Shown here: positions 522 through 56,397 of the stretch, piece by piece
How positions within the stretch are numbered: position 1 is the stretch's first letter
Layout: each line of letters opens with the position of its first letter
DNA from: Carpediemonas membranifera BICM
Taxonomy: Eukaryota; Protista; Fornicata
Assembly (NCBI GenBank): GCA_019828565.1
Contig: JAHDYR010000050.1
Location: forward strand, 1-58,510
Length of the DNA stretch: 58,510 nucleotides
Direction: 5' to 3'
Program-made: the position numbers and the translations under genes
Notes under the pieces: model-generated
Databases searched by the model: none
What the model was told of the DNA's origin: nothing
The model's input: only the letters and a program-made list of their open reading frames with translations

Positions 522-619
522 CAGCACAGCTAATACTAGTATTGTCGGTTGAAATCATTTACAGTAAACCGCAGCGCGGTAAAAGTGGTCAAAACTGGAC
601 GGAGCAATTTATAGACCGG

Positions 620-6010: not shown

Positions 6011-6325
6011 TAAGTGGAATAAAATGAACGAATGACTGATGCGGCACATTCTGTTTACGCTATACGACGATTTTTAGAGAGCGCCAGAGAGGTGCTGCAG
6101 GGAGAGAGCTTGTGCTTGCGTATCCTGAGGGATGCGGGATGGGAGGGGCCGACGTAATTGGCCAATCCACGTTTGTGGATCACCTGGTGTCGTCCATACC
6201 GGGCGTCTCTCCGCCACAGGCTGTGTTGCTGCGCATGGAAAGCAGTGTTAACTGTGTTCTATTGCACGATAGCACGGGGTTATTGACTGATGCGGCACCT
6301 ACCTTAAATTGCTCGTCATCCACAG

Positions 6326-7341
6326 TTGTGGATGGACCGATATCGCGCTAAGCATCGCCAAGCACCTCTCAAAGGGCAATCATCCGCTCGACAAGATCAT
6401 CACCTGTTCATTTCACCATGGAACGATGAGCAGCTCCGCATCCTTGGCGATAATGCGCGAGTTCTTCAGCTGCTCGCCATGATGGTCCCTTGGATGCGGA
6501 AGATCTTGGCCTCGCCTGCATTTAACCCCGGGTGCAAGCCCAATAGCACCGAGAAGGACCTCCTCGGCAAAGAGCTCGAACAGGACGTGGATTCATCAAG
6601 AATCCTTCGTGAGATGTCCAATCGAGCGGCGTACAACAAAGCCCATGCCAAGATCATTCGTGATCTCGTTGAGTACCGGAACCGCGCAGCTCACAATGAG
6701 CTTGAGCCCGACACCCTGCCCAAGGTCCTGGAGCTGGTCGAGAGCTTGGCCCAGGCCTTCTCGGTTCCATTGCACGATAACGTCAGGGCGTTCATCGCGC
6801 TGCTTAAGTCGCCAGTGTCGCTCGTTGCGACAAGTGAACATCATGCTCTGACGAAGAAGGTCAGCATTCTTGAGGATGAGATTGAGAGGCTGCGCGTAGC
6901 GGCGGCCGTAAGACCATGCTCAGGCTGCCAGGTGTCAGGTCTCAGCCGGAGCCCACCACTTTGGAGCAGGCAACGATGACGACTTCGGACGTCGGAGACC
7001 TGGATGAGCCGAGGCCCAGGCCCGAAGACACGGGCAAGACGCGCGGTACGCTCATGTCCCGCACACTGACTGCTAGCCAGGTGGACCAGCTAGCTATGGT
7101 TAGAACGCATGACCCCCCGCTTGTCCTGTCAGGACGTTGCATCGTGTGCGGGGGCTCATGCGAGACCTCAGAGTGGGCTTGCCGTCGTACCTCAACGACG
7201 ACACCCAAAGATCCTTGCCGAACGTTGATTCGGAAGGTTAAGATTGGGAATACTCGCGACGTCTCTGTCTACCTCACAGATGAGGCATTTGAGTGGGTCA
7301 AGCGTCGCGATCCGACAGGCAAGAGAGCGAGACAGGAATAA
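6326..7341 (+). CDS. HEPN-motif protein with C-terminal Zn ribbon (frameshifted copy; intact copy at 39792..40805)
   Basis: YRNRAAHN fits the RxxxxH HEPN motif in a helical domain; C-terminal GRCIVCG...C...C. Confidence 0.6.
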
Positions 7342-7362
7342 ATGAATGTATATGTGCATGTC

Positions 7363-7739
7363 TGGGCCTCAGCGCTGTCGTTCAGGCCAATCCACGTTTG
7401 TGGATCCGTGCAGTTTATGGCTTATCGACCGGACATCTCCTGAACTGAGCGCCAGGGGGCGGAGGTGGCGTTGGCGTGGGGCGTGGAGGCGCTGGGGGCG
7501 GGGGTGGCGTTGATATTGGGCAATTACATAAAGTGCACGGTGCTTGGAATTTCATTCCAACCTCAAAAATGGCGGGAAAGCATTATTGGAAGGAACTAGT
7601 GGCAGCTATGCGGTTCTTTATACTGCAAAAGCAACCAGCTGTCGTCAAAAAGCGCGCCATCTACCATCAATAACCAACATCTGCGTTGCACTCCACTGTT
7701 CTCGGTCGTTAATGCACAAAAATCACTAAAACAACATCA
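7363..7739 (+). repeat. About 375-bp intergenic dispersed repeat, copy 1
   Basis: Near-identical copies at 10649-11021, 12510-12885 and 14326-14701, inverted copies at 39398-39770 and 41431-41803, and a partial copy at 22625-22680. Confidence 0.95.
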
Positions 7740-7778
7740 GAAAGGAACAAAAGATAGATACTATAGACGTCCGTTTAC

Positions 7779-8507
7779 CTATTCAGCCAGGCGCAGGTAC
7801 TGACGCGCCGTCTCTCGGGCAGAAGATATACCATGGAGGGATGCGTTCTGGGCAAGGCGCTTGAACGACACAACGAACAGCGGAAGTCGCTCCCACTCTC
7901 CTTGGGCCCAGTAGTGATGGTCGTACTCGAGTGATAAATATTCGTAGGGGTGAATTGTTCGAACGCACACGAAGAAGAGAAGCGGGAGCAGTTTCGTCTC
8001 ATCAGCAGCAACACGAACAAGAACGTGACCAATGTGGCACTGCACATTGGTCACGACCGGGTTGTCGTTGATGCGATGGACACCGATTGTTTCAGGGTTG
8101 GCGCTGACGCAAAACTGGGTTCCATCGATGAGGTAGTCGTAGTTACCATTTGACTGGCGCTCATGGATGACCTCACCAGCATAGACACCGACCAGAGAAC
8201 CGACGTCGATTCGGTGCGACGAGATGACCCCTTGGCCAACATCGGTGCCCATGAGGGACTTCTGTGGCTCAAGAAGGATCCCATCTGCGGTCTTAGCGAT
8301 GCCGTTCTCAAGTAGTTCTTCGCCTGCATGCTCAGAGTCCGCCTTCTTGCCACCTGCACCGAGGAACTGCTCTCTATCCTCCTTAGAGAGCTTTTTCAGA
8401 GACATCAATTTCTCGTAATCATCTAAAAGACATTGTAATGTTCTCTCTTCCTCTGATCCATCTGTAGCAACATGCGGGATCATGATAGTGTGCATTCCTG
8501 TTGTCAC
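7779..8507 (-). CDS. Stand-alone SET-like domain protein
   Basis: GQGV...IDVGSLVGVYAGEV...HRINDN...RTIHPYEYLSLEY follows the SET motif order GxG, YxG, RFINHS-like, ELxFDY-like. Confidence 0.72.
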   Translation of the reverse strand: MTTGMHTIMIPHVATDGSEEERTLQCLLDDYEKLMSLKKLSKEDREQFLGAGGKKADSEHAGEELLENGIAKTADGILLEPQKSLMGTDVGQGVISSHRIDVGSLVGVYAGEVIHERQSNGNYDYLIDGTQFCVSANPETIGVHRINDNPVVTNVQCHIGHVLVRVAADETKLLPLLFFVCVRTIHPYEYLSLEYDHHYWAQGEWERLPLFVVSFKRLAQNASLHGISSARETARQYLRLAE

Positions 8508-8663
8508 TCACAATTGCGAAACTCGCTCTCTGTTCCATAACCTGCACATCGGATTTGAACGATGACGACAGACAGCCAACAGTGGATCGCATTTGAGCAT
8601 CTTGCGGCTCTATAAACCACTATAAAGCGTGGTAAGATAGAGACCGCAAGTCAATGCATCAAC

Positions 8664-9296
8664 ATGATCGAGGATTCCTGTGTGGAACGATTTGTGATGT
8701 TCTGGCTAACTACAGAGAACGCGGCGACGATTTACAACGAGAAAACGGCTGCTCTGCAGGAGAGCTATGGAGACGGAGTTGAGGACGACAACTCCCTGCA
8801 GTGCCAACAATGCGAGAGGTACTTCCATTATAGCTGTGTCAGTGGCTACTTGGAGGAGCGAATGGCATACCCGGCATCTAACAGGGCCGATAAGCAGAAG
8901 ATATCCATCTGCGATGACTGTAAGGCAATCAATGGTAACGACGAGTGCTTTCATCGTACACCTCCAACCGAGACCACCCAAGCAGCGGACTGTGGTAGAA
9001 GTATTAAGGATGGACCCAGCATGCTCTGCTACTTTTGTTCCAACTGGTTCTGTCCGGATCATATCGCGGACACCGTTTTTGACACTGGAACTGACATGTT
9101 GAAGCGTCCTTCTCGTCGTGTTCCGGTGTGCGTGAATTGCTTTCCTCGCATTCAGAGAGGCCAGCGACAGTTCAACGGTGAGTATACCAACGCTGCCCGC
9201 GCTATTACAGAGCCATTGACACTCGCGGATGACGAGGCTCGTGATGATGTCAGTATCCGCGAGGAGGTGAGTGATGAGGAGGATGACCAAGAGTGA
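8664..9296 (+). CDS. Chimeric ORF formed at the duplication junction (family-X N-terminus fused to PHD C-terminus)
   Basis: The first about 38 aa match the 11844 gene; the rest is identical to the C-terminus of 4853..6010. Confidence 0.7.
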   Translation: MIEDSCVERFVMFWLTTENAATIYNEKTAALQESYGDGVEDDNSLQCQQCERYFHYSCVSGYLEERMAYPASNRADKQKISICDDCKAINGNDECFHRTPPTETTQAADCGRSIKDGPSMLCYFCSNWFCPDHIADTVFDTGTDMLKRPSRRVPVCVNCFPRIQRGQRQFNGEYTNAARAITEPLTLADDEARDDVSIREEVSDEEDDQE

Positions 9297-9610
9297 TAAG
9301 TGGAATAAAATGAACGAATGACTGATGCGGCACATTCTGTTTACGCTATACGACGATTTTAGAGAGCGCCAGAGAGGTGCTGCAGGGAGAGAGCTTGTGC
9401 TTGCGTATCCTGAGGGATGCGGGATGGGAGGGGCCGACGTAATTGGCCAATCCACGTTTGTGGATCACCTGGTGTCGTCCATACCGGGCGTCTCTCCGCC
9501 ACAGGCTGTGTTGCTGCGCATGGAAAGCAGTGTTAACTGTGTTCTATTGCACGATAGCACGGGGTTATTGACTGATGCGGCACCTACCTTAAATTGCTCG
9601 TCATCCACAG

Positions 9611-10627
9611 TTGTGGATGGACCGATATCGCGCTAAGCATCGCCAAGCACCTCTCAAAGGGCAATCATCCGCTCGACAAGATCATCACCTGTTCATTTCA
9701 CCATGGAACGATGAGCAGCTCCGCATCCTTGGCGATAATGCGCGAGTTCTTCAGCTGCTCGCCATGATGGTCCCTTGGATGCGGAAGATCTTGGCCTCGC
9801 CTGCATTTAACCCCGGGTGCAAGCCCAATAGCACCGAGAAGGACCTCCTCGGCAAAGAGCTCGAACAGGACGTGGATTCATCAAGAATCCTTCGTGAGAT
9901 GTCCAATCGAGCGGCGTACAACAAAGCCCATGCCAAGATCATTCGTGATCTCGTTGAGTACCGGAACCGCGCAGCTCACAATGAGCTTGAGCCCGACACC
10001 CTGCCCAAGGTCCTGGAGCTGGTCGAGAGCTTGGCCCAGGCCTTCTCGGTTCCATTGCACGATAACGTCAGGGCGTTCATCGCGCTGCTTAAGTCGCCAG
10101 TGTCGCTCGTTGCGACAAGTGAACATCATGCTCTGACGAAGAAGGTCAGCATTCTTGAGGATGAGATTGAGAGGCTGCGCGTAGCGGCGGCCGTAAGACC
10201 ATGCTCAGGCTGCCAGGTGTCAGGTCTCAGCCGGTGCCCACCACTTTGGAGCAGGCAACGATGACGACTTCGGACGTCGGAGACCTGGATGAGCCGAGGC
10301 CCAGGCCCGAAGACACGGGCAAGACGCGCGGTACGCTCATGTCCCGCACACTGACTGCTAGCCAGGTGGACCAGCTAGCTATGGCCAGAACGCATGACCC
10401 CCCGCTTGTCCTGTCAGGACGTTGCATCGTGTGCGGGGGCTCATGCGAGACCTCAGAGTGGGCTTGCCGTCGTACCCTCAACGACGACACCCAAAGATCC
10501 TTGCCGAACGTTGATTCGGAAGGTTAAGATTGGGAATACTCGCGACGTCTCTGTCTACCTCACAGATGAGGCATTTGAGTGGGTCAAGCGTCGCGATCCG
10601 ACAGGCAAGAGAGCGAGACAGGAATAA
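9611..10627 (+). CDS. HEPN-motif/Zn-ribbon protein, duplicate copy (frameshifted)
   Basis: Near-identical to 6326..7341. Confidence 0.6.
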
Positions 10628-10648
10628 ATGAATGTATATGTGCATGTC

Positions 10649-11021
10649 TGGGCCTCAGCGCTGTCGTTCAGGCCAATCCACGTTTGTGGATCCGTGCAGT
10701 TTATGGCTTATCGACCGGACATCTCCTGAACTGAGCGCCAGGGGGCGGAGGTGGCGTTGGCGTGGGGCGTGGAGGCGCTGGGGGCGGGGGTGGCGTTGAT
10801 ATTGGGCAATTACATAAAGTGCACGGTGCTTGGAATTTCATTCCAACCTCAAAATGGCGGGAAAGCATTATTGGAAGGAACTAGTGGCAGCTATGCGGTT
10901 CTTTATACTGCAAAAGCAACCAGCTGTCGTCAAAAGCGCGCCATCTACCATCAATAACCAACATCTGCGTTGCACTCCACTGTTCTCGGTCGTTAATGCA
11001 CAAAATCACTAAACAACATCA
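10649..11021 (+). repeat. About 375-bp intergenic repeat, copy 2
   Basis: Near-identical to 7363-7739. Confidence 0.95.
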
Positions 11022-11060
11022 GAAAGGAACAAAAGATAGATACTATAGACGTCCGTTTAC

Positions 11061-11789
11061 CTATTCAGCCAGGCGCAGGTACTGACGCGCCGTCTCTCGG
11101 GCAGAAGATATACCATGGAGGGATGCGTTCTGGGCAAGGCGCTTGAACGACACAACGAACAGCGGAAGTCGCTCCCACTCTCCTTGGGCCCAGTAGTGAT
11201 GGTCGTACTCGAGTGATAAATATTCGTAGGGGTGAATTGTTCGAACGCACACGAAGAAGAGAAGCGGGAGCAGTTTCGTCTCATCAGCAGCAACACGAAT
11301 AAGAACGTGACCAATGTGGCACTGCACATTGGTCACGACCGGGTTGTCGTTGATGCGATGGACACCGATTGTTTCAGGGTTGGCGCTGACGCAAAACTGG
11401 GTTCCATCGATGAGGTAGTCGTAGTTACCATTTGACTGGCGCTCATGGATGACCTCACCAGCATAGACACCGACCAGAGAACCGACGTCGATTCGGTGCG
11501 ACGAGATGACCCCTTGGCCAACATCGGTGCCCATGAGGGACTTCTGTGGCTCAAGAAGGATCCCATCTGCGGTCTTAGCGATGCCGTTCTCAAGTAGTTC
11601 TTCGCCTGCATGCTCAGAGTCCGCCTTCTTGCCACCTGCACCGAGGAACTGCTCTCTATCCTCCTTAGAGAGCTTTTTCAGAGACATCAATTTCTCGTAA
11701 TCATCTAAAAGACATTGTAATGTTCTCTCTTCCTCTGATCCATCTGTAGCAACATGCGGGATCATGATAGTGTGCATTCCTGTTGTCAC
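11061..11789 (-). CDS. SET-like domain protein, duplicate copy
   Basis: One amino-acid difference from 7779..8507. Confidence 0.72.
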   Translation of the reverse strand: MTTGMHTIMIPHVATDGSEEERTLQCLLDDYEKLMSLKKLSKEDREQFLGAGGKKADSEHAGEELLENGIAKTADGILLEPQKSLMGTDVGQGVISSHRIDVGSLVGVYAGEVIHERQSNGNYDYLIDGTQFCVSANPETIGVHRINDNPVVTNVQCHIGHVLIRVAADETKLLPLLFFVCVRTIHPYEYLSLEYDHHYWAQGEWERLPLFVVSFKRLAQNASLHGISSARETARQYLRLAE

Positions 11790-11843
11790 TCACAATTGCG
11801 AAACTCGCTCTCTGTTCCATAACCTGCACATCGGATTTGAACG

Positions 11844-12447
11844 ATGACGACAGACAGCCAACAGTGGATCGCATTTGAGCATCTTGCGGCTCTATACACC
11901 ACTATAAAGCGTGGTAAGATAGAGACCGCAAGTCAATGCATCAACATGATCGAGGATTCCTGTGTGGAACGATTTGTGATGTTCTGGCTAACTACAGAGA
12001 ACGCGGCGACGATTTTACAACGAGAAAACGGCTGCTCTGCAGGAGAGCTATGGAGACGGAGTTGTGCGGTGCTCGGGTACGGACAGCATCACGAGAACAA
12101 TATCATCTTCCTCTCGTGGTGTCGAGCATGTATCGAGCATTGAGCGAGCATCAAGCGTCATGCAGCGTCACTTGGAGTTCCTGCATTGGGGCAAGATCGC
12201 CCTTTCCTGTAGCGGCAGGACGCTAGCTGACTTTGCGACTCAGCACTTCCCCTTCCGTGTCTCTGATATTGAACGCAAGATTGTCTTCGTGATGGTCACC
12301 GTTCCCAATGAGTTCATGGTTTGGTATAAGGCGCTTGTTGACGAGAAGATCGATGAAGAAGAGTTTACCTACTACATCATTTATCGTCTTAACTCCAGCG
12401 CGAAGGATCACATGGTTGTTAATGCCCTAACCTTCAAATATGAATGA
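11844..12447 (+). CDS. Unknown protein, family X (frameshift at T-run near 12014); paralog of 30342..30950
   Basis: FRVSDIERKIVFVMVTVPNEFMVWYKALV..IDEEEF aligns with VRLSIFDRYAIYVAKKAPSLYASWVESLL..TSIEEL. Confidence 0.55.
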
Positions 12448-14860: not shown

Positions 14861-16162
14861 TCAATCTCTTTTCGTCCGCTCAATCATTGCAATAAACTGC
14901 CTGTGCAGTCTTCCGCGCACACCTTTTGCGCACTTATTGGTGCTCACCTGCCTGTATCCCTTGTGGCATGTGTCACAGCTGACGTTCTCGCGTCCATGAA
15001 GGTCTCTACCACACACTATGCAGCGCCGATAGAAGACTTGACCCTCAAACCCTCGCTGACAGCAGTCGGTCAGTCTCTTTCGCTGAGCTGCAGACAGGGT
15101 GACCTCTTCTGTATCATCTAACAGAAGCGGACTCGGCTTGGCGACGCATTCATGCACGCGCATGATGACCTTGAGCTTGTCAAGACATTCGGCAGCAGTG
15201 GGACGCTTCGTTGGGTCGAAGTGGAGCATCTGCATTGCCAGGTCGTACAGGCTGAGACAATTAGGTGGCGTGGTGCCGCGAATCGGGAGCTCAGAGTTCA
15301 CGTTGACACACTCGAGGCAATCTTTGAAATGTGTCTGTGCCTGAGGTGACAACTGCAACTGCCCACCATAGAATTGGCACCAGTTCAGCAAGCTACCAAG
15401 CTTCAGCATCTTCTTCTTCTTGTTGTCGATCTGCGCCATGTTTGCACCCATGTCAGTCACCTTCGCGGCAAAGGGGGACTTAGAGAGACCGTTAACGAGC
15501 ATCATAATGACAATACCGCAAGAGTAAATGTCCGATGCAGGTGTCACGACATAAGAAGTGACGGAAAGAGCCCCTGCCGTCATGCGCGCGAGCTTGGAGG
15601 TGTCGCGTGCAGCAGGAATCACTGAGCGCGAGACAAGGTACTCGTAGAAAAGCTCTGGGGGCAAATATCCATGGGTGCCGCGATACTCGGATGCGAATCT
15701 CAGTTGTATGGCCCACCTGTCGTCGCCATTAGCCGGCTTCCTCATTGCAGACCCAAAATCAATGAGGTATCCCTTCTGACTCTTGCTGAAGAGGAAGTTG
15801 TCTGGCTTAATATCGCAATGGACAACCCCGTGGTCATGCATGTAGCATACTGCCTGCAGCAGATGCGAAACATAGCGGAACTGCACGCTGGAGTGAGCCT
15901 TGCAGATGCCAGCGAAGGGGGTACAGTTGACCAAAGGAGCCATGAAGGCTGTATCACGGTCGACAAAACCTGTATCGACGACAGGGAGGACATGCGGACT
16001 GTCCTTGAGCGCTAGCAGGGTGGGAACCTCCATACCATAATGCTCATCAACTTTGATCACAACCTGCAGCTTTTCAGGTTCAAAGTCGTGCAGATATTGT
16101 CTACTATTACCAGGTAAGGAAGTCAGTCGCTCCAGCTTGTCGCTATCTAGCTCAAACACCAT
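14861..16162 (-). CDS. Ser/Thr protein kinase (non-RD) with C-terminal Zn ribbon
   Basis: VIK, HCDIKPDN, DFG, GTHGYLPPE, SDIYSCG, RPTA; C-terminal CIVCG...CDTC. Confidence 0.93.
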   Translation of the reverse strand: MVFELDSDKLERLTSLPGNSRQYLHDFEPEKLQVVIKVDEHYGMEVPTLLALKDSPHVLPVVDTGFVDRDTAFMAPLVNCTPFAGICKAHSSVQFRYVSHLLQAVCYMHDHGVVHCDIKPDNFLFSKSQKGYLIDFGSAMRKPANGDDRWAIQLRFASEYRGTHGYLPPELFYEYLVSRSVIPAARDTSKLARMTAGALSVTSYVVTPASDIYSCGIVIMMLVNGLSKSPFAAKVTDMGANMAQIDNKKKKMLKLGSLLNWCQFYGGQLQLSPQAQTHFKDCLECVNVNSELPIRGTTPPNCLSLYDLAMQMLHFDPTKRPTAAECLDKLKVIMRVHECVAKPSPLLLDDTEEVTLSAAQRKRLTDCCQRGFEGQVFYRRCIVCGRDLHGRENVSCDTCHKGYRQVSTNKCAKGVRGRLHRQFIAMIERTKRD

Positions 16163-19931: not shown

Positions 19932-22100
19932 ACTGCTCCTTCCCCCATGGGTCCGAAGTTTCCAGCCTTTTCAGCGACTACCGCCTTAGTTCGCTTTGAA
20001 CCGCAGCATCTTCCGCTGTGCAGGCAACTTCTTCGCCAAATGAGGTACTTTCTCCAAGTATCTGTCAAGTGCTTCGAGTTTGTCTAGCTCCAATGTGAAT
20101 GGCTCCCACGTGGCTTCCTCAGGAAGGTACCCTTCCCAAATAACATGCAGTAGCAGCTTCCGTCCCTCGAACTTGTGCTCGTTGATCTCCTCCACCACGT
20201 ATTCGTCGTCTCGCTCCGCAGCAACCTGCTTCAGCTGATCGAGCGTCAAGCTTGTCTCGAACACCCTGAGCCTGTCAGCGTGGATGCTGTGGGTCTTCCC
20301 GGACGTCAGGTTACGGACACGATAAACGTTCGGGGACTTGTCTGGGCCTATGCACCACATCGGCCCGAGCAGAGTAGATCTCCTACCGGAGTTCGACGCC
20401 ACCAGGACTGCGGTGTCTTGTAGCTCGATGTGATCGCGACTTGGCGACTCTCCATCACACAGTTGTTGCTGAACCACACGATTAACTTCAATCCTACGCC
20501 TAAAGAGCTCCAACGAGACTGTATCGTCACTCAACTCGTCAAGAGTCGAGTCTTGCTCCTGGTCGTACAGTACCGTCCACGGGGACATGCCCGTGGTACT
20601 ATTCTTCGTCGAGTTAAGGATGAACTGAGCGTGTGGAATCAGTTTCGTCCAGTCACGTGTCTTGCACTCCGTCATCAGGCACTTCAGATGCTTCTTCAGC
20701 TCCGCGTTCTGACGTTCGACGACGCCTTGCGATGCCGGTCGGTACGGCGTACCGATATGATGTTTCATCGATAGCTTCTCCACCATGGTGTCGACGAGCT
20801 GATTTCGGTATTGGGACCCACCGTCTGAATGGATTAAACGGGGTATACCGTAGTGGGCGACCCATTGTAATAGGGCCTCAGCTGCCTCTGCCGCAGTCGT
20901 GGAGTGAGTGAGGTATAACATCGTAAGCTTGGAGAACGTGTCGATGGCCACCACGATGTGGCGGTAACCGCCGCCAGATTCAGGTAGGGGTCCAACAGTG
21001 TCTACTTGTACTACGTCAAATGGAAGGCGTCCCATCGTCGAATGCCGGTCCTGCGGCACTCGCTCAGCTGTCTGCCGATGGACTTGGCAGACCGGGCAGG
21101 CCTTGACGAACTGTTTCACCTCGTTGTACATCCCCTTCCACGTCTCTCCTCTTTCAATCAGGCGTTGTAGGGTAGCCCGAATGCCCAGATGTCCTTGTAA
21201 ACCCCCATGTATGCTTTCGATCAGGTCAGTATGGCTCGTATCGGCACTTTGTAGGTGTACTAGACGGGACAAGCCGTCTGCACCGCCGTTGGCCACTCCT
21301 GGTACGTGTTCCACGGAATAGTTGAACCGTGCCATGGCCAGATGCCACCTAACCACCTTAGCGTTGGCAGAGGTGGCCAGGTAGAGCAGATTTTTGTGGT
21401 CAGTGCGCACAACGAACTCTCGTCCGATCAGTAGTCGCTCTGCCTTCTGCATTGCGAAATAAATCGCGAACGCCTCCTTCTCATACGTCGACCATCGGCG
21501 TTGGGTAGCGTCGAATGTCTTCGAGTAAAAGGCGATCGGACTAGGACCTGACGCGGATTCTTGCATCAGTACGGCACCTGCTGCGACATCACTTGCGTCG
21601 GTCTGCAATATCAGCTTCGACCCAGGCTTGGGGTGTACGAGCATTCTGTTGTCCAGCAGGCAGGTCTTGACGCGCTCAAATGCGTCTTGTTGGTCTGGTC
21701 CCCACTCAAACTTCCTGTTGGCCCGGGTGAGGGCCGCAAGGGGGCTCAGTTATGTCCGCGTAGCGCTCAATCATGGGGCGGAAGTAGTTAACAGTCCCCA
21801 AGAGCGTACGAAGCGTCGACAGGTCACGGGGGGGTGCAAGATCGTGAATTCCTTGCAGGCGATCCTCTGCGATCCTCTTGCCGTCGGCGCTAACGGTCCA
21901 TCCTAGATAATCGATCTCGGACGCAGCGAAGATGCACTTCTTCGCATTGAGACGGAGTCCTCGAGTGTGGAGTTTTCCGAGAACGGTCTCCAGGCGACGT
22001 AGAAATTCGGTTTTGTCCCGGCCGTAGACCACTACGTCGTCCACGTACACCAAACAGTCGGTGTACACGCTGCTTCCTAGCGCTGCCTCCAGGGCCTCCA
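19932..22100 (-). mobile_element. pol: 5'-truncated chromovirus (Ty3/gypsy) retrotransposon: RT C-terminus, RNase H, integrase, chromodomain, PPT
   Basis: YVDD (RT); TDASD, EKEA, TDHKNL (RNase H); HHCC and D-D-E (VDTVGP, SDGG, VERQN) integrase; chromodomain EYVVEEI...WEGY...TWEP. PPT gggggaaggagcag at 19933-19946 is followed by TG at 19932. Confidence 0.95.
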
Positions 22101-22942
22101 GGGACAACGCCAAAATGGCGAGTTCAGGTTGTAGCAATGATCTGATGCGCGGAATGTACTAGAAAACATTGCAATTACAACGCAAAGCAGCGAAAAGCGG
22201 AGAAATCAACATCAATAACAACATCAACACCAAAAGAACAGTATCCCAAAGAATTGTGGGCGTTGCTGCGCCAAAGAGCAATAAATGACCACAAAGCATT
22301 CGCTTATGCACAATTAGCTGCCAGAAAGAACACTACACCGTTACTTTGGATCATTCCAGTTCGCCGGAGATGACGCAGGTCCAGAACGCTGCCTTGGAGG
22401 GCTGGCGAAGCGGTAGTGTAGCGCTTACTCGCCAAGCGGGCGATGGTCTCGACGGGACGGTTGACGGTCTCAAGGTGGCCCTGCTCTTCGACGTACCAGG
22501 CGGACATGCCGATGACGGAGCGGCGCTGACCCTGGCGGACGTTATCTTCGCCCTGGGTGAAGCTGTTCTTGCCGCAGTACACGTCGATACCGATGGTGAG
22601 GCAGGGCTGTAGCATGGAGGCCGAGAAACCATAAACTGCACGGATCCACAAACGTGGATTGGCCTGAACGACAGCGCTGATGCCCAGATAGGCATATATA
22701 CATTCATTTATTCCTGTCTCGCTCTCTTGCCTGTCTGATCGCGACGCTTGACCCACTCAAATGCCTCATCTGTGAGGTAGACAGACATGCCGCTGCCCTT
22801 ATCCTTCCGAGTCAGGCTCCTCCTCGTCTGCCTACTTACCCTTCTTCTCCTCTGTCTCCACCTCCTTGTCCTCCTTCTTCTCCGTCTCAGCCTTCTCCTA
22901 AACGTACACAGTCGAACGCACTACAAAGGCATATCCAAATCT

Positions 22943-24540
22943 TTATTCAATCTCAACGACCTCGCACTTCTTCTGGTACAGCGTGGCGTGAGCCGGATCG
23001 CCTTCGATGACAATAGCGAAATTATCTGTCAACCCCCACAAGTCTGCATCGGGTGCAAGCATGGTGGTGCCATCAAACAGGTATAAGATGGCGGAGATGC
23101 CTTGCATGCCGTTGTATCCGTCGTATGACTGGACAACAAGGATGTTCCGCTTCTGCTTCCTCGCCCAGACTCGGATGGCGTTCGAGTTATAGTAGCCGGA
23201 GTCCGGATCTGTCAGGCTACGCTCCGTGACATTCTTCTTAGACCAGTACTTGGCCTTCACTGACTGGCAGAGGCCACGCTGCCACTTTTCGAAGTCGCCA
23301 TCAACTCTGCCACCCAACTCAATGGCTTGGAGACAATATGCAACGCAGTTGCCGTCACTCTTGACATGAATCGCGGTACAGCCAGCCGTGAGAGCCTCCG
23401 CGTTGATGCACGTCTGCACCGCGGCCTCAGAGGTGATGCGAGTCTGAGTCTCCGGCTCAGTCTGGATGCAGGCGTCGCATGTGTTCACCGCCTCCTCTTC
23501 TGCCTCACCCCTCTTCTCCTTCGCCTCCTCCTGCTCCTCATCTGACTCCTCCTCCTCTGACTCCTCCTCCGAGTCCTCAGGCCTGGCCTTCTCGGGCGTG
23601 ATGAAGAGGGCCTTGCGCTTCACAGACATGGATGCCTGCGCCTCGTCCGTATCGCGTCGGGGACATGAAGTCCTGGAGACTGTGCCAGACTGTGGCGGGA
23701 TGGGGCTGCATGGGAGTGATGCATCCATGGACTTGTCAGCGTCATAGGCTGCCTCTCGCTCAGCCTGCTGCTGCAGAAGGCGTCGATGCAGCGTGATGAC
23801 TTCCTCACTCTTTGCCGTCAAGCTCTTCCTCAACTGCTTGACTCTCTTCTTGTATCCTCGAACAATTTTGTGATAGTAATCGATGATAGCGCCAGTACCT
23901 GGGGGGAGCAGGGGCGTACCTTCTCCCGCGGGGGTCTCCAACCATTCCAGGGCGATGATGTACTCTTCGAAGTACGAGCGGCAGGAGTGCTTCATGTAAG
24001 CAAGGTCTGCCTCCTTGCTGCGCACCCTGGCAACCATTGCTGTGACATGGTCGCGCACAAGCGCGTTGGTGGATGTCGCGTTGCGCCACGCCCGAACCTT
24101 GACACTCAGCGCCTCTTTTTCGATACGCGCGCCCTCATTCTCCTTGGCATACTCAGCCCTCTTGGAGTTCTTGAAGGCTGTGACAGCGGCCGACTCAAAC
24201 GCCTTCATCTCCTTCTCCGTGAAGGTTGCCTCGATGTTCTCGTTCGAGGTCTTATCCTGCACCTGCTGAGACAGCAATGCCTCGAGTTCTGCCTTCTTCT
24301 CGCCCTGAATCTCGAAATATGAGCACAGGTGGTTAAAGTTGATCCCTATATAAACATTTGCACCAATTACGTACCGTTCTTGACGACTATATCGAAGATA
24401 TCGTTCTCGTCGAGCAATTTGTCCCGAAGAACGGCACTCTTCGCCTTGTTTGTCTTCTTCTCCTTGAATTCGGTGATAACGGCCTCAATCACATCATCTG
24501 AGGTGCTCTCGATCCACTCGTGAAGGAATTCGAACGTCAT
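22943..24540 (-). CDS. Coiled-coil/acidic protein with C-terminal OTU-like cysteine protease; 29-nt intron at 24346-24374
   Basis: VKSDGNCVAYC...GDPAHATLY gives a D-x-x-C plus His arrangement. Splicing GTACGT..TATAG joins ORF 24367..24639 in frame to ORF 22943..24277. Confidence 0.68.
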
Positions 24541-48098: not shown

Positions 48099-48815
48099 AT
48101 GGTCATAACCATGGCGCAGAGGGCGAAGACGTTCTTCCTCACATATCCAAAGTGGACTGGATCTAAGCTAGAAACAGATGACGACTTCAATCGTCTTAAA
48201 GCAACCATGGACACTTTGATATCGACCTCATTCAAGCACCGCAAGATCCACGAGTGCGTTATAGCCAAAGAGAACCACAAAAACGAAGGCATACACCTGC
48301 ATATGCTAATAGTCCTAGACGACAGGACCTACTGGAACGCCAAAAAGCACCCCGACGCATGGGATGTGGAGGACCACCACCCTCATGTCGAGGTTGCTCG
48401 GGGTCTGACAGCCGTCCGGCGTTACTGCAAAAAGGATGGCTGCTTCAGAGCATGGAACTGCAGCCCTATCACCACCGGACGGCATTCAAAGGAGATAAAC
48501 ACCGACGTTCTCCATCTAGACCCGGTAGAAGCACTGCGCACAAAACAAGTATCCTTCGTAGACTTCCGCGCGTTCCTATACGCACACAACTTCCTGAAAC
48601 TACACACACAGGTGAATGAAGTCCTAGATACGCCGCGCGGTATCTGGATATGGGGTCCACCAGGCACTGGCAAGTCCTGGGCTGCCAGAAATAACTATGG
48701 CGCCAGCGACCTTTACCTCAAGGCTCAGAACAAGTGGTGGGACGGCTACTCCGGCGAGAAGACAGCTATCATCGATGATCTCGACACGGACTGTCTCAAC
48801 CACTACCTGAAGATA
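48099..48815 (+). pseudogene. rep: Endogenous CRESS-DNA virus Rep (HUH endonuclease plus SF3 helicase), truncated by element 3
   Basis: Motif I FLTYP, motif II HLHML, motif III YCKK, Walker A GPPGTGKS, KWWDGY, Walker B IIDD. Homology stops at YLKI, exactly where CATACTG begins. Confidence 0.92.
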
Positions 48816-48890
48816 CATACTGTCCAGGGTTCAGGAATTTCCCTTATTGGGTAGGGGAATTTCCTCGGGGGAAAGCCCGAGGAAATTCCC
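48816..48890 (+). repeat. Terminal repeat of element 3
   Basis: catactgtccagggttcaggaatttccc...ggggaatttcctcgggggaaagcccgaggaaattccc, including a 15-bp perfect stem. Confidence 0.75.
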
Positions 48891-49308: not shown

Positions 49309-50583
49309 TTGCAACAGACGTCTGTGGAAATGGTCTTTAAGCTCTCCGCTGCCGATTTGACGCAACTACACAAGACTAACTACAGTAATACGTACATTGC
49401 CGACATTAGCGGGGTCAAAACTGTCGTCAAGGTCGATAACTGTATGACACTTCGCCTGACACACGAAAAGACGATACTTCAGGCAATGAAAAGCCCATTT
49501 ATTGTTACAATCGTCGATGTGGGCTTTGTTGACAGCGATCAAGCGTTTGCCACTCGCTTTGTTGACCATATGTCGTGGCGAGACGTTCTGGCACTACCAG
49601 TACCGGATCAATGTCGCTACTTGCGGCACTTACTGTTAGCTCTCAGCCATGTGCATGAGAATGGATTCATCCACGGCGACATCAAGCCCGACAACTACCT
49701 TTTCAACCGAGAAGACGGTGGATTACTCATTGACTTCGGCTCTGCCATCAAAATAGAGGCTCCTACTGGGATTAACAGGTATATGGGACAAGACATGAGA
49801 GGGACACCTGGTTTTATCCCCCCCGAGCTTCGTGCCGACGAACTCAGTCGGAAATCGAAGCATTGTACAGTAGCTATGCGGGAACCACAGAATTTGAACC
49901 CCTTCCAGGCTTCCAGGAACACCACAACCAGAAACACCAACATGCACACAGTTGATGCGGCATACGACATCTTTTCCTGCGGCGTTATCGTCCTCATGAT
50001 GGCATTGCGACTGGATAAGTCTCCATTTCGATCTGTGAGAGTGGATGGTGGCAAGCCAAGTAACCCAGACGAGCATATTGGCGCTCTATATAACATGGCG
50101 TACTTCTACGGCCGCGAAATCACGATACACAGCAAGAAGAAGAATGCAGCCCGTGGTTTGATGATCAATCCGACTCTCTGCACGAGAGGAAGCCCTCCGA
50201 CACAGTATAGGAGCCTTTATGACCTTGCAATGGGGATGCTCAGCTATAATCCGGAGGATAGACCAACAGCTTTGATGTGCGCTGAACATCTCAACGATAT
50301 CGCCGCCCTAGCAGCAACGTTCGCATCAACACCACTGATGATCAACGACCAGGTGACAATCTCTCAGGAAACGCTCGCTGCCGCCAAACTCACCGTTGAA
50401 GCACTTCGAGAAACCCGATTTGCTGGCCGATGCATTGCATGTGGCATGCCGGTTCACGATAATCGAACAATAACTTGCAAGACACACCACCAAGATTACA
50501 GAAGCATCATGAACCCCCACACAAAGAGAAGAGGACGAGTTTGGAGGGTTCATCGTGATCTATCATTGATTATTGATATGTAA
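49309..50583 (+). CDS. Ser/Thr protein kinase (non-RD) with C-terminal Zn ribbon; paralog of 14861..16162 (likely ATG 49330)
   Basis: VVK, HGDIKPDN, DFG, GTPGFIPPE, YDIFSCG; GRCIACG...CKTH. Confidence 0.93.
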   Translation: MQQTSVEMVFKLSAADLTQLHKTNYSNTYIADISGVKTVVKVDNCMTLRLTHEKTILQAMKSPFIVTIVDVGFVDSDQAFATRFVDHMSWRDVLALPVPDQCRYLRHLLLALSHVHENGFIHGDIKPDNYLFNREDGGLLIDFGSAIKIEAPTGINRYMGQDMRGTPGFIPPELRADELSRKSKHCTVAMREPQNLNPFQASRNTTTRNTNMHTVDAAYDIFSCGVIVLMMALRLDKSPFRSVRVDGGKPSNPDEHIGALYNMAYFYGREITIHSKKKNAARGLMINPTLCTRGSPPTQYRSLYDLAMGMLSYNPEDRPTALMCAEHLNDIAALAATFASTPLMINDQVTISQETLAAAKLTVEALRETRFAGRCIACGMPVHDNRTITCKTHHQDYRSIMNPHTKRRGRVWRVHRDLSLIIDM

Positions 50584-51030
50584 CCGCCCAGTATCGAATC
50601 ACCTCACTACCATGGGATGATCGCATTCACCTTCAAAGAAAGAGATGAGGCCGCATACTCGACCAGATATAAAGGAGATATGCTGCAGCCTTGAAAAGAA
50701 AGAAAGAAAGAAAGAAATTTATGGTGCTTGGATTCTGACCCCGGACTGAGCTTGTTTCCCGTGCTGCAGCCTTGCGCTGGCTTTATAGACAATACCCAGT
50801 TGTTTACACTAAAACCGAAAAATCAGTCCAGTAGACGCTCGAATCGAACTGGAGTGGGGTGGCTGTGATACAGTGTTCGTTCCTGTAGTACCCAGGCAGA
50901 AGACCCGACCGGACGATATGGCCTGGAACTCTACCGGCAAAAAGCAGCTGGCGGCCGCTGAGGAATATGTGGAAGGCGCTTCCAGAATGATCTTTACACT
51001 ACTTTCTTTGCTTCTATCTTGTACTTACTG

Positions 51031-52710
51031 TTAATCACTCTCATCATCTTTTTGTCTACTTGTGGATGACGGAGCGCCTTCCTGTATTTGCGCTTTTCTT
51101 TTGATACCCTCTGGGAGACTGACAAGTTCCGCATGGTCGTCCTGGAGCAGAATAAAGTGGGTAATGCCATGTCTGGAACAGAACACCTGGAAATTCTCAC
51201 AACGATCAGCAGCTGAGTCGCCAGAAGGGTACAAACCCCAAAACTGGTGACCATGTGTGAACAATATCACTGTAGAATTATTACCGTTGTTGCACACCAT
51301 GATGACATTACGCATGTAGATCATGGAAAACTCTCGCACAGCATCATCGGTAAGCCAGCCCATCTTGGAAAACAGTTCTGCCTTAGCGGAATCCTCCGTC
51401 AGAGCCGTCCGCTTCACCCGGCTTTCCACCAGCTCGGCACGCAAAGCCATGGCTGCCTCAAGATCTGTTCTGTGGGTCAGGGTGGTCATATCCCGGAAAT
51501 GGCCGTCCCTAATCATGCAACAGCAGTGCGCAACACAGCTGCCATCACGGTGTGTCGAGTATTTCCTCCATGACTTCAACCCATTCACAATTTCCTCAAC
51601 GAAGGACTGTGGCTGACCGCTGGTGCCGATTGGAATCTCTTTCTTCTCAATCATATTGTTGATGTGAGACTCAATGGCCACAGATGACTCGTGTTCAGAC
51701 TTGATCAAGAGCAGAGAGCGAAAGTCGACGATCTTAGCAGTGGAATCGAAGTTCGGGTACGCAGGCCGGTAAACCTTGTTAAGCAAAGGATAACAACGCG
51801 GCGGGAGTCTTGCGTCTTCCTCCGATACGATCTTCGCTTTTGCACAACCGTCAGGTCTTGCGATAATGACTCTTCGCTTCATGTACGAGAGCTTGGACAT
51901 CCAGAACCAGAATTGCGCGATCTCATGGAGGTGATCTGGCTGAGTCATGATTCTGATGAGCCACGTGGCGTCATGGGCGGCAAGTTCGACGGCGGGTAGC
52001 TCATCTGGTGTCAAAAGCACCACACACCGTTGCATTGTGAACTTGAACTTGCCAGAATACAACTGAAAGATCGGCCGTGGGTCACGGGCGGAAGACTGGC
52101 AGGCGGCAATATACACACCCATGATTCGGGCGAACTTGCAGACATGACTCTCATAATTCTTCAGAATTGCCTCGATGAAGTCGAAGGCAGTTGTCCAGAT
52201 GGCTGGTATCGTGCGGGCATCGACCACAAACCGACCATCAGAGTCCGAGTGACCAGTGATAATGAAAAAAGTCTCATAGTCACCATACAGCTTGCCGAAT
52301 TCCTTGATTTTCGCCTCAAAATCGTCCTCGTTCTCGAACTGGGCCGTCTCGATAACCGTATACTCGCTATGCATTGCCGCAAAGATCTGACGAATGCGTT
52401 CTGCGTGCCCTCCAATGGAGACAGATTCATCAATCGAAAACTGCCTGCTATCTCCAGCAACGAACCCATAGGTTGGCTCGAACACGATGAGGACACGTGT
52501 ATTCTTCAGCGCCAGTGCAGTACGGGTGCACTTGTGACGTCGGGATGGCGAGGGAAAACCGACGTTGCGTGTTTCGCTACTGATGTCCCCACAGACACAT
52601 TCAAACAGCTTTGATCCATCCAGATATCGATTTCTCCACCCCATTGCATTGAAAAATGTCTGATCGTCGTTCATGACGCCAATGCCAAATTGAGGGTGAG
52701 AAAATGGCAT
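51031..52710 (-). CDS. Putative caspase-like (clan CD) protease fused to an OTU-like protease
   Basis: FFIITGHS and GVYIAACQ give a His-Cys dyad after hydrophobic strands; C-terminal RDGSCVAH...GWLT...DDHAEL. Confidence 0.58.
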   Translation of the reverse strand: MPFSHPQFGIGVMNDDQTFFNAMGWRNRYLDGSKLFECVCGDISSETRNVGFPSPSRRHKCTRTALALKNTRVLIVFEPTYGFVAGDSRQFSIDESVSIGGHAERIRQIFAAMHSEYTVIETAQFENEDDFEAKIKEFGKLYGDYETFFIITGHSDSDGRFVVDARTIPAIWTTAFDFIEAILKNYESHVCKFARIMGVYIAACQSSARDPRPIFQLYSGKFKFTMQRCVVLLTPDELPAVELAAHDATWLIRIMTQPDHLHEIAQFWFWMSKLSYMKRRVIIARPDGCAKAKIVSEEDARLPPRCYPLLNKVYRPAYPNFDSTAKIVDFRSLLLIKSEHESSVAIESHINNMIEKKEIPIGTSGQPQSFVEEIVNGLKSWRKYSTHRDGSCVAHCCCMIRDGHFRDMTTLTHRTDLEAAMALRAELVESRVKRTALTEDSAKAELFSKMGWLTDDAVREFSMIYMRNVIMVCNNGNNSTVILFTHGHQFWGLYPSGDSAADRCENFQVFCSRHGITHFILLQDDHAELVSLPEGIKRKAQIQEGAPSSTSRQKDDESD

Positions 52711-52771
52711 CGCACTTTAAAGCAGCTTTATGTGAGAAATGTATTGCATATAATTCTGCATTCAGAAGACG

Positions 52772-53314
52772 ATGGCTAGAACAAAGCAAACGGCTCGCCG
52801 GCCTACGCAAGGTGGAAAGGCGCCTCGCAAGCAGTTAGCAGCGATAGCTGCGCGGAGAGCGAATACTTCGTCGTACCGCACCTACAAGCCGTTGTCTCAG
52901 GCCGCGTTGGAGAATTGCACGGCAGTCCTGCAAAAGGCTGATGCTGATATCCAAGAAACTATTCTGTCGTGCATCAAGAAGACGGAGGCGCACAACTTCA
53001 AGCAGATGGTCAAGAATTCAACACGAGCTGGTTTCCGACTTGCATTCAACACTGAGTCCGAGTCTGTCCACATGAACCCATCGAGGAAGGACGAGGTGGC
53101 AGCGCGGGCAGAAGCTGCTTACCAATCAGCGCTGCATGCCTTCCGCAGCGTTGACCCTGAGACTGCTGCGACAGAAGATATGAAGACACTGCTTGACACC
53201 TTAGCGGTTGCTCTTGACGCAACGCCAGATGTGCCACATGCTCGCCTGGATCCTGAAGAACAGCGTCGGTTCCTGAAGCTGAAGGATACGTACATAAAGG
53301 TTAAAACAGTTTAA
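52772..53314 (+). CDS. Histone H3 N-terminal tail mimic fused to an unrelated helical domain
   Basis: [29 protein letters not shown] vs H3 [28 protein letters not shown]. No histone-fold motifs follow. Confidence 0.88.
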   Translation: [180 protein letters not shown]

Positions 53315-54209
53315 GGAACTCGTCCAACGTCTTCGCATTGTGCGTCATGGCCACCTTGTCCTTCTTCGTCAACCTCGATTTGGTACCCTTTCTCTTCACA
53401 GTCGTCTTCTTCTTCTTAGAAGGCTCCCAGCTCCCATTGGCGCATGCTTTTCTTAGCTTCTTCTGCTCTAATCTGTACTTCTCCTCCTCCGTCATGTCTG
53501 CTTCCTTTTTCTTTGCCTTCGCCTTCTTCTTCGACTTCATTACATCTAACTTCTTCGCCTTCTCTGCATCCTCCTGGACCACGCGAGAAATTGAGTGCTT
53601 CACGTCCTTCGGTACATCACGATTCCTCGCATGCTTAACCACGACAAAGACATTATCGTCAGTGCCGCCACCTTCAAGGATGACCTTGTCCTTTGGGATC
53701 TTGCTGGTGGCAACCAAGAAGCAGATCGGCTTCTTATCCACCTTGAATAGGGCAAACCTGCAGTTGCCAGCAGCCGAATGATGGCAAAGCTTGTTGACGC
53801 ATGCTTCATCAGGAGTCATGAGGTGCAGCTGTGACGATAGCTGAATCCGAGAAGGCTGATCGCTAAGAACACCCTTGGCAATCCCGAGCACTTCTCCCTC
53901 ATCAACATCGCCAGCCGTGACCAAACCATACATCATGTCATCGCCCTTTGACACCATGCATGTGCTGCACTTCAGAGAAATGAGCGATTGGCCGTCAAGC
54001 TCGACAATTTGGTCATCATCGAAAGGCAAGGCGTCTATCTTCATCGCGGCTTCGCCCATGTCCGCCCAATTTGCATAGACACGACGCGCAAGCTCTTCCG
54101 GAAAGCAATCGCAGCAAAAGTTGACAGTTCCACTTTCTTGCTGCATTCTACGCAGTTTATACCAGCAGTTTATACGCAGCAATGACACAGCACCAAGAGC
54201 GTGGCACAC
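53301..54209 (-). CDS. Divergent SET-like domain with Lys-rich C-terminal tail
   Basis: YGLVTAGDVDEGEVLG..KG...LCHHS..GNC...LVATSKIPKD. The terminal ELxFDY motif is absent. Confidence 0.6.
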   Translation of the reverse strand: MCHALGAVSLLRINCWYKLRRMQQESGTVNFCCDCFPEELARRVYANWADMGEAAMKIDALPFDDDQIVELDGQSLISLKCSTCMVSKGDDMMYGLVTAGDVDEGEVLGIAKGVLSDQPSRIQLSSQLHLMTPDEACVNKLCHHSAAGNCRFALFKVDKKPICFLVATSKIPKDKVILEGGGTDDNVFVVVKHARNRDVPKDVKHSISRVVQEDAEKAKKLDVMKSKKKAKAKKKEADMTEEEKYRLEQKKLRKACANGSWEPSKKKKTTVKRKGTKSRLTKKDKVAMTHNAKTLDEFLKLF

Positions 54210-54299: not shown

Positions 54300-55005
54300 T
54301 GATGAAGAAGTTCTGCTATGACGAAGCCGGCTTGTCGCGACGAGAACTGGGCCATAGAACTGAAATCGGCATCCGAATATCGCGGCACGCATGGGTATTT
54401 ACCCCCAGAAATGTTCAAAGTGTGTTCGTGTTCGGTCATTCCGCCGTCAACGAGCGCCATACGAGACCTCCAAGCATACGCGCATGACTGCATCGGCTCT
54501 TCCCGCCTGTTCTTCATGTCGTCACACCTGCCTCCGACATTTACTCGTGCGGTGTAGTCATTGCTCTTTTACGGTCTCCCCAAGTCCCCCTTTGCCGCGA
54601 AGGTGACTGACATGGCGCAGATCGACAACAAGAAGAAGAATAAGATGCTGAAGCTTGGTAGCTTGCTGAACTGGTGCCACTTCTATGGTGGGCAGTTGCA
54701 GTTGTCACGTAAGACACTCGAACCGCTCAGAGATTGTCTCAACTTCGTGAACGTGAACTCTGCACTACCGATTCGCGGCACAACGCCACCCACTTGCCTC
54801 GGAATGTACGACCTGGCAATGCAGATGCTCCACTTCGACCCAACGAAGCGTCCCACTGCTGCCGAATGTCTTGACAAGCTCAAGGTCATCATGCGCGTGC
54901 ATGAATGCGTCGCCAAGCCGAGTCCGCTTCTGTTAGATGACACTGAACAGGTCTTACTCTCTGTAGATCAGCGAAAGAGAATGGTCGACTGCTGCCAACT
55001 GGGGG
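54300..55005 (+). pseudogene. Kinase pseudogene closely related to 14861..16162
   Basis: ASEYRGTHGYLPPE and LGSLLNWC...RPTAAECLDKLK are near-identical; 5'-truncated and frameshifted. Confidence 0.88.
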
Positions 55006-56397
55006 TCCTGGAGGAAAAGTTTAGAGATGCGATTCGAAAGGGTCGTAGCATTGAACTCGAAACCATGAGTCCTAAGAACACCGGCGCATGCCCAACACTC
55101 ACCCCGGTGGGGCCTGGCCGTGGTTTGAACATATACCGACACATAACTGGGTAAATACGTAAATGTTGTGCGAAAATTGCGTCTTGTTCTGCACAGAGCG
55201 ATGACGAAACTAAAAACGGAACAAGAAGAGGCCTGAAGATTTAACTGCCCGGCGGTGCAGGTTCGTCAAGTGGCCGGAGATGCCGCTTCCAGTAAGGTGT
55301 ATGCCGTACAGCTCGCCGTATCCATCTCCGTGCCCGTCTCCATCCCCCACTCCGCCTTCAACGCCAGCCCCCCGCCACGCCTGTTGTAAGTCCGCCTCCA
55401 TCTCCTGTCCGCAGTTCACCACCGAGTCTCGAAATCGAATCACCTCACTACCATGATTCCCCGCAATACCATGATGTATGTGATGACCATTAAACGATCT
55501 CCTTCTATACAATGACTTCTGAAGCCGTCCGACCAACGGCACAGAACGGTTTATAGCATGCATATGATCCATTCTGGTGCCTTTATCCTCTATAACCAAC
55601 ATCAGTCCATCAAAAATGAATCTTGCAACAGAATACTCATCCACACGCATCGAGAACGAAAAAGAAGCATATAACCAACATCAACAACCTAATAGAAGGC
55701 TGCATGCAAGCGTAGAGCTCTCCTAGTCGATTCTTCAATTTATCAAGCATCAATCTCCACGTCAGGATGAAACTGTGCGCCCAAAAGCTCAGAGATGCCG
55801 TTATAGATGATATAACGACGTCTCTGAGCTTTTCAGCGATGTCAGTTTCTGGCCACGTCCAAGTTCGGCTCTGCGAAAATAACAGTGCATTGCACTATAA
55901 GTCATACATTTGGAATACAGCAATGCACTGTTATTTTCGCCAAAACCACGCTGACCTACCATTGTCCATGGGCTTGACGGGGGTGATCTTCTCGGCTTGG
56001 ATTTGGCTGAAACTTGGTATATGTGTAGTATTTGATATGTTAGGACGGATCCAAGATTTTTTTACATATCGTTCGAGTCTATTTACCGAGATATACGTAA
56101 AGCAAAATTAGGGTTGAGTCTATTCTGGCTGAAAAGCGGTATGGTGGGTTCTCTGACTGTCTGAACACGGCTCCAGAAGTTTTACGTGATGAATTGGCAT
56201 ATTTATATTGCTTTGCGTAAACAGAAAATTTTGACAGTACCTACAATCAACTACCTGCATATACATGCTATAAACATGCTTAAAATGCCTTCAGTCGTAC
56301 GTGCTATATACTAAAGCTCTTCCTGCATCTTATTTCGAAAGAACAAAATATTCACTCTGAAAATAACACTGCATTGCTGTGAAATTTTTGGAAAAAG

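Follow-up and report, generated by a model that had tools for sequence, protein, structure and literature searches.

A histone H3 tail joined to a predicted helical body lacking a detectable histone fold, from a repeat-rich island of Carpediemonas membranifera

Introduction

Several cellular proteins, among them VRK1, BCL11B and PCLAF, carry the M-A-R-x-K start of histone H3 on a non-histone body, with potential H3K4-reader binding; according to the part of the literature on these H3 N-terminal mimics that we consulted (PMC8166343), the A-R-T-K end is bound by PHD fingers and NuRD-type proteins in H3 and in the mimics alike. Genomic parasites also carry H3-like sequence with altered sites, and the existence of viral histone mimics, on which the original prediction for the present locus drew, is documented in print in the form of short linear motifs (PMC11738798, in the sections consulted). 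Single viral H3s are described, in the text available from PMC9145170, as keeping a fold that is 73-89% identical, while excerpts of a preprint on transposon chromatin capture (bioRxiv 2021.11.30.470311) describe PHD, chromo and SET domains as frequent acquisitions of transposons, occurring on mobile elements as fusions to transposon domains. Short viral mimics, viral H3s with an intact fold and transposon-captured readers and writers are therefore already in print; the known viral mimics span a few residues, and the chromatin genes known to travel with transposons encode readers and writers. In a literature search that covered subscription papers thinly, no title or abstract dealt with the protein described below or with a transposon-borne H3 tail devoid of the fold, and the excerpts of PMC11738946 and PMC9396995 added nothing to the comparison.

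Here we analyse an open reading frame (ORF) of 180 codons at 52772..53314 (+ strand) of a 58,510-nucleotide stretch of Carpediemonas membranifera DNA, hereafter the window, which encodes an H3 N-terminal tail followed by a helical body. Whereas the mimics of PMC8166343, as far as that source goes, are short motifs in cellular proteins, this ORF holds a captured tail of 28 residues, lies in a probable mobile island and is known from sequence only. Unlike the viral H3s, its fold is undetectable and its tail is long when set beside the viral motifs; unlike the transposon-captured domains in the preprint excerpts, the gene is free-standing.

Results and discussion

The H3 tail

The ORF is intronless, runs from ATG to TAA and has no internal stop, whereas the remaining two plus-strand frames contain 8 and 10 stops and those of the minus strand 4, 3 and 8. 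Its N-terminus matches human H3.1 over residues 1-40 (phmmer, E = 5.5e-6), and its H3-tail score of 106 compares with 42 for the best unrelated stretch and a median of 17.5 (3,894 six-frame segments of 60 aa across the whole window). That the ORF begins with an H3 tail keeping the equivalents of K4, K14 and K18, as originally predicted, is thus confirmed. Overlooked at that stage were one extra residue inserted between K9 and K14, and the fact that T22, S28 and K36 are lost as well. The homologous part comprises codons 1-28 (52772..52855, + strand), corresponding to A1-R26 of the mature histone plus the insertion, and residues 1-8 and 13-21 are exact H3 matches. In comparison with canonical H3, K4, K14, K18 and the K37-P38 pair are kept, and the changes are K9R, S10P, T22A, K23I, K27R, S28A and K36Y. 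The M-A-R-T-K start has the M-Z-R-X-K form by which the consulted text of PMC8166343 defines H3 N-terminal mimics.

Significant H3 likeness stops at R26. Past residue 28, the H3 scores of all three frames are at the level of shuffled sequence (90, 195 and 151 of 300 shuffles as high). The junction (52856..52891, + strand) consists of the R27 codon and a linker leading to the K-P at the K37-P38 register, and is ambiguous with respect to indels. On the 5' side, a spacer of 61 bases (52711..52771) lies between two divergent start codons and is likely a shared promoter.

The body

Residues 41-180 (52892..53311, + strand) are predicted to be all-helical, with a three-helix bundle at about 103-179. 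The original prediction saw here an unrelated C-terminal domain without a histone fold. As regards sequence this stood, every test of residues 41-180 being at chance, while on the structural side there is a model of pLDDT 56 that matches generic bundles only. An H3-body HMM (56 sequences) gave 0.3 bits, a score reached by 1,051 of 2,000 shuffles; hhalign (109 sequences) returned a probability of 0.2%, with 72/150 (local) and 16/150 (global) shuffles as high, its positive control, P0077, having passed the filter for the profile's own sequences and hence not being independent. A frame-shift-aware H3 alignment was matched by 39/60 shuffles, pairwise alignments to H3s by 550 to 950 of 1,000, and register-limited ones by 50 to 120 of 200. 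No histone fold was detected in the ORF by Pfam (PF00125) or by the H3-body profile. A hidden histone fold that had been seen by eye as motif echoes over residues 76-140 failed six shuffle tests and was set aside, as was a spliced or extended H3 with its fold further downstream, of the kind found in P0150, for tblastn of H3 against the 58.5-kb window matches only the tail of 52772..53314 and no other H3 piece. By sequence, a body fold of H3 type is undetectable.

The AlphaFold2 model, built from the single sequence, is all-helical with a pLDDT of 56 and a pTM of 0.35; the bundle at 103-179 reaches a pLDDT of 70-76 in most blocks, again from single-sequence input. This weak model resembles generic helical bundles only (best VIA-align Z of 8.2, no histone entry among the 50 rows listed), and Foldseek yielded nothing at E<=0.001 in the PDB or BFVD; both outcomes would be compatible with a histone fold. 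The only relative of the body is the C. membranifera database protein discussed below: no other homologue was found among 1.84 billion representatives, in 5 pattern matches from viral contigs or in 212 from metagenome contigs, and the best ESM Atlas match, at 0.86, belongs to no family.

These results bear on whether the protein might instead be an extremely diverged H3 variant, in which residues of about 62-145 still adopt the histone fold and pair with H4, so that the protein would mark element chromatin with nucleosomes closed to methylation at K9 or K27. When the body is aligned with the full H3 variant of a metagenome locus (L001, see below), the best BLOSUM45 alignment does fall in the histone-fold register over 51 columns, placing F76, V80, L90, F92 and the A120-L-H-A-F-R motif on their H3 counterparts. 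The K-P pair sits at the K37-P38 register, a SET-linked full H3 variant with such a tail is known from L001, the database protein is named 'histone H3/CENP-A', and the consulted text of the host genome paper (PMC8516963) mentions other divergent H3 variants. That alignment is, however, at chance (775/1,000 shuffles as high; 50-60/200 in the register-limited band), as are the HMM and hhalign scores given above, with no Pfam histone-fold family, and P103 would lie inside the long histone helix, at a point where the model breaks. We regard a surviving histone fold as improbable.

Related H3 tails

Among 408 fetched tails, the closest, identical at 25/29 positions, belongs to the full H3 variant of L001. 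This protein has a complete H3 fold and, in its tail, the insertion, no S10, A22, no S28 and R27 (codon AGA), with K9 and K23 kept. P0187, an H3 of this type (85% identity), likewise has the insertion, no S10, A22 and no S28, and keeps K9, K23, K27 and the complete fold. The insertion, the absence of S10 and A22 are thus shared with our ORF, while K9, K23 and the complete fold are found only in the two true H3s. Several changes separate the L001 H3 from P0187 in the fold and C-terminus. At 567-3405 of its locus, the L001 variant directly follows a gene for a 742-aa SET protein (E = 3e-6), in which a possible OTU-type Cys motif was also seen; the mix of genes is similar to that in the window. 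The L001 H3 may be element-borne. Beyond the tail, no significant match was found between L001 proteins and window proteins; the resemblance of the tails suggests an L001-type full H3 variant with an adjoining SET gene as a source of the H3-tail ORF.

Long non-histone continuations after the H3 tail occur in two of the 123 fetched loci that carry it. L089, a giant-virus contig, encodes a protein of 145 aa (3001-3438) in which the H3 tail, up to about A25, is followed by a coiled region of acidic character and, at the end, a basic stretch; it belongs to a cluster of 8 members and has no histone fold. In L014 (13-903), a canonical H3 tail is fused to a von Willebrand A domain (vWA) protein (Pfam E = 1e-11). 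H3 tails without the fold are therefore not unique to our ORF. Two further fetched sequences are of a different kind: in L033 (232-558), an H3 tail that has R27 leads into a weak match to the histone fold, by eye more H2B-like, and P0150, an H3, combines a doubled tail (Q9, P10, M23, T27) with an insert of about 90 residues and a complete fold. P0097, once considered a second fold-less mimic, was dropped, since it clusters with the fold-bearing P0150.

H3 tails bind importins, and the tail might then be nothing other than a ready-made basic signal by which an unrelated helical protein enters the nucleus or binds DNA, its mimicry being incidental. The K-to-R changes would keep the charge, and the vWA protein of L014 exemplifies H3 tails that head unrelated domains elsewhere. 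An exact match over residues 1-8 and 13-21 nevertheless goes beyond the needs of a basic signal, and K23I removes a charge, which makes this explanation very hard to favour.

The database version and the indels

The C. membranifera protein KAG9389682.1 (P0001, 127 aa; E = 1e-39) corresponds to the sequence of the H3-tail ORF with three 1-base frame shifts. The two are identical at residues 1-28 and 56-105, and the remainder of P0001 is window DNA read in shifted frames; it has the same tail and differs in these shifts, in a K at position 27 and in its stop at 127 aa. The NCBI record has no Pfam histone domain, and the name 'histone H3/CENP-A' seems to be based on the tail alone. The first difference from the window falls at residue 29, the K27 position, and the third frame at the junction continues from a serine, like canonical K27-S28.

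Where the window holds near-identical duplicates, 1- or 2-base indels, most of them in homopolymers, separate the copies with about the frequency of substitutions (7 vs 5 in a 3.3-kb pair), so residual long-read errors are likely in the window too; the public host assembly was built with nanopore reads, according to the text consulted in PMC8516963. The list of substitutions in the original prediction accordingly needs to be graded. K9R, S10P and K23I stand, and K9R and K23I appear secure in both known versions, whereas K27R is less secure, since P0001 shifts frame at this indel-ambiguous junction and reads K, and since the window shows signs of 1-base errors. In favour of R27 are the frame, open to 180 codons, the K-P in register and the same AGA codon in the L001 H3.

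The two versions also raise the possibility that the ORF is a chimera that is dead or was never in use, in which 28 codons of H3 were joined to unrelated element DNA and the substitutions represent drift in a silent, decaying copy. The H3 likeness ends at R26, exactly at the indel between the two known versions, the database version is truncated, and the body is without another homologue in the collections and the viral and metagenome contigs listed above. On the other hand, the three shifts of P0001 are of the type given by long-read errors, in an assembly based on nanopore reads; 180 open codons face 3-10 stops in the other five frames; and residues 103-179 model as a bundle (pLDDT 70-76 in most blocks) from one sequence. 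The state of the neighbouring genes, which is considered next, bears on the same question.

Neighbouring genes and the island

Downstream, the H3-tail ORF meets a SET-like ORF (53301..54146, - strand; 281 aa with a Lys-rich C-terminus). The tail-to-tail overlap noted in the original prediction is real, at 14 bases, and the SET likeness is weak: the Pfam SET match (E = 0.059, 14.2 bits) lies below the cut-off of 22.4, and KMT5A is matched at E = 0.24. HHS stands in place of the NHS motif, and KVILE followed by Gly where KMT5A has EELLY. As the terminal tyrosine motif is absent, the product is probably inactive and at best a pseudo-SET. Its structural model has a pLDDT of 33, which makes a structure search uninformative. 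The SET-like ORF has a letter-for-letter match in the protein collection, while 8/9 looked-up ORFs of the window have no exact match, and no homologue of it was found in viral contigs (0/5).

On the other side, a 559-aa ORF (51031..52710, - strand) has a CHAT/caspase-like middle part, a lead only (Atlas 0.91), and a C-terminal part that resembles ORF 36967-38451 (2/500 shuffles as high). Similar C-termini were seen in ORFs 22943-24208, 36967-38451 and 38785-39213, which have no Pfam match; in all of these, as in 51031..52710, we take a Cys motif to be of OTU type. A protein kinase gene (49330..50583, + strand), whose best solved match is Cdc7, has paralogues at 14861-16162 and 54306-55154, the latter broken. 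The Cdc7 match of the three kinases (E = 4e-9) is barely ahead of that of other kinases, and the host is reported to be without ORC and Cdc6 and to have one Cdc7. An identical 22-base sequence lies 3' of both kinase copies in the module (50593-50614 and 55434-55455). A CRESS/geminivirus-type Rep (48099..48854, + strand) comprises an HUH domain and the start of a helicase, and ends early, just before a 15-bp hairpin (48855-48890).

Taken as a whole, the window forms an island of duplicated modules carrying SET, PHD-like, HEPN-like, kinase and protease-like genes. The SET gene at 27671 has a Pfam E-value of 2.3e-5 and paralogues at 7782 and 11064; the PHD-like fingers, at E-values of 3e-4 to 8e-4, are below cut-off. 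Of the original interpretation, the captured H3 tail on a body in which no histone fold could be detected is supported, and its surroundings are genes of SET, PHD-like, kinase and protease-like type. Hairpins flank the module that contains the H3-tail ORF, and a flank copy is 82% similar; neither a transposase nor element ends were established for this module within the window, and its Rep ends early. Elsewhere in the window, a block with a PHD/FYVE-like finger, a HEPN-like domain and SET is repeated (4946-12064 and 39392-41331), with homopolymer indels between copies that break ORFs, and an LTR retroelement pol with RT, RNase H, integrase and a C-terminal chromodomain is split over frames (19986-22158, - strand). 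A 278-bp repeat forms two arrays of 99-100% identical copies (649-4307, 13.2 copies; 45692-46899, 4.3 copies), and Rfam gave no match to the whole window, these arrays included. The second array runs into a stretch (46900-47233) that by eye resembles the restriction-like endonuclease end of a non-LTR element, followed by six copies of a 5-base unit; this endonuclease-like stretch has no Pfam match. An open ORF of 854 aa (42080-44644, + strand) has no match in Pfam, NCBIfam or the PDB, and some of its motifs, we presume, recall CMC-type transposases.

For the proposal of a dead chimera, these surroundings cut both ways. The neighbouring Rep and the second kinase are broken, and in the text consulted of PMC8516963 the four Geminivirus-like Rep genes of the host are without RNA support; the ORFs that flank the H3-tail ORF, at 559, 281 and 417 aa, are nevertheless open. 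Taking the junction, the body and the neighbours together, we consider a dead chimera possible, though on the unlikely side.

Are the changes aimed at silencing marks?

The original prediction read the substitutions as targeted at silencing marks, and this could not be upheld: S10, T22 and S28 are already absent in insertion-bearing true H3s, K36 and K23 are gone too, and the loss of lysines in the tail is not significantly enriched (3/6 vs 3/22, Fisher P = 0.09). All six changes in positions 1-28 fall on K, S or T, where 16/28 positions are K, R, S or T, a coincidence whose P of 0.02 is post hoc. Of the fetched H3s, 91 have a fold motif; 73 of these are without K9, 17 without K9 and K27 and 2 without K9, K23 and K27, in a query-biased set that overstates these rates. 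Since the true H3s L001 and P0187 have the insertion and already lack S10, T22 and S28, only K9R and K23I are special to our ORF; and if these two come from host relatives, only K9R and K23I, plus K27R in the element-like copies, would be derived.

A K-to-R change removes the substrate, yet does not produce an inhibitor as K-to-M does. Methyltransferase inhibitors of the K-to-M/I type have Met or Ile at K9, K27 or K36 in native context, and the K27M oncohistone and EZHIP inhibit PRC2 through altered H3 lysines of this sort. The H3-tail ORF shares with them the alteration of H3 lysines, but reads R9, R27 and Y36, with Ile at 23 only. Inhibition of PRC2 type is therefore not expected, with Arg rather than Met or Ile at K9 and K27 and with the Ile at 23 lacking a preceding Arg. 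The change at 23 also removes an acetylation site.

As to the marks themselves, a K27 writer in the likely host is plausible, since Supplementary Data 8 of PMC10638273, the part consulted, files CARMEM (which we read as C. membranifera) under EED, SUZ12, RBBP and, according to the file header, EZH; according to the accessible part of an earlier preprint (10.1101/2021.07.16.452543), E(z) was not found in metamonads. For Giardia, H3K9me3 has been reported on antibody evidence (PMC7743719, in excerpt). The host is credited with five H3 genes (J8273_5023, 5025, 5027, 5939 and 7228) and a separate CenpA (J8273_4235), besides the divergent variants already mentioned, in the text consulted of PMC8516963. 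Among the best 120 of 173 homologue rows, obtained under a narrow candidate filter, no H3 of C. membranifera had this tail, which is weak evidence on the host sequence.

Conclusions

We propose, with a probability of about 0.45, that the H3-tail ORF goes back to an H3 variant and serves a selfish element as a cargo gene, which would offer an H3 tail with K4, K14 and K18 outside nucleosomes. In its favour are the tail, intact from residue 1 and of the M-Z-R-X-K form, the 180 open codons, a body at shuffle level in six tests, the surrounding island with its SET and PHD-like genes, the L001 variant as a suggested source, the frequent capture of chromatin domains by transposons and the fold-less tail protein of L089. 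Counting against it are the broken Rep and second kinase, the Rep genes of the host without RNA, the absence of a transposase or element ends from what was established for the module, the weak structural model, the chance-level alignment in the histone-fold register, the several tail changes that are lineage traits and the single relative of the body, frame-shifted three times. Under the cargo proposal, removal of the Met would expose A-R-T-K as in H3, and writers and readers of H3K4 from host or element (PHD, WD40/NuRD-type and acetyl-lysine readers) could take the tail for H3. The protein might then titrate the H3K4 machinery, or tether it to the element through the predicted helical body, which would likely be barred from nucleosomes. 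With K9, K23 and probably K27 gone, the corresponding marks would be impossible and chromodomain and Polycomb readers escaped, so that the role would be that of a passive decoy or recruiter bearing active marks only, as opposed to an inhibitor of K27M type.

A wider and distinctly speculative suggestion, which we hold to be rather unlikely, is that Carpediemonas-type protists harbour a family of selfish elements with a chromatin kit of their own, made up of SET proteins, PHD-like fingers, a Cdc7-like kinase, protease-like proteins and a copy of H3. In such a family a full H3 with K27R, as in L001, could have given rise to a tail decoy free of nucleosomes, in which the activating lysines alone remain and which would thereby shield the element from K9/K27 silencing.

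Should the gene prove to be silent, or to be a sequencing chimera, it would be an ordinary decayed fragment, misnamed CENP-A in NCBI. If the cargo proposal is true, a whole captured H3 tail, deployed by a genomic parasite as a separate protein without the fold, would be a new counter to host silencing, from a lineage in which chromatin has hardly been studied, and the pair formed by the full variant of L001 and the tail-only ORF would give a possible evolutionary path towards it.
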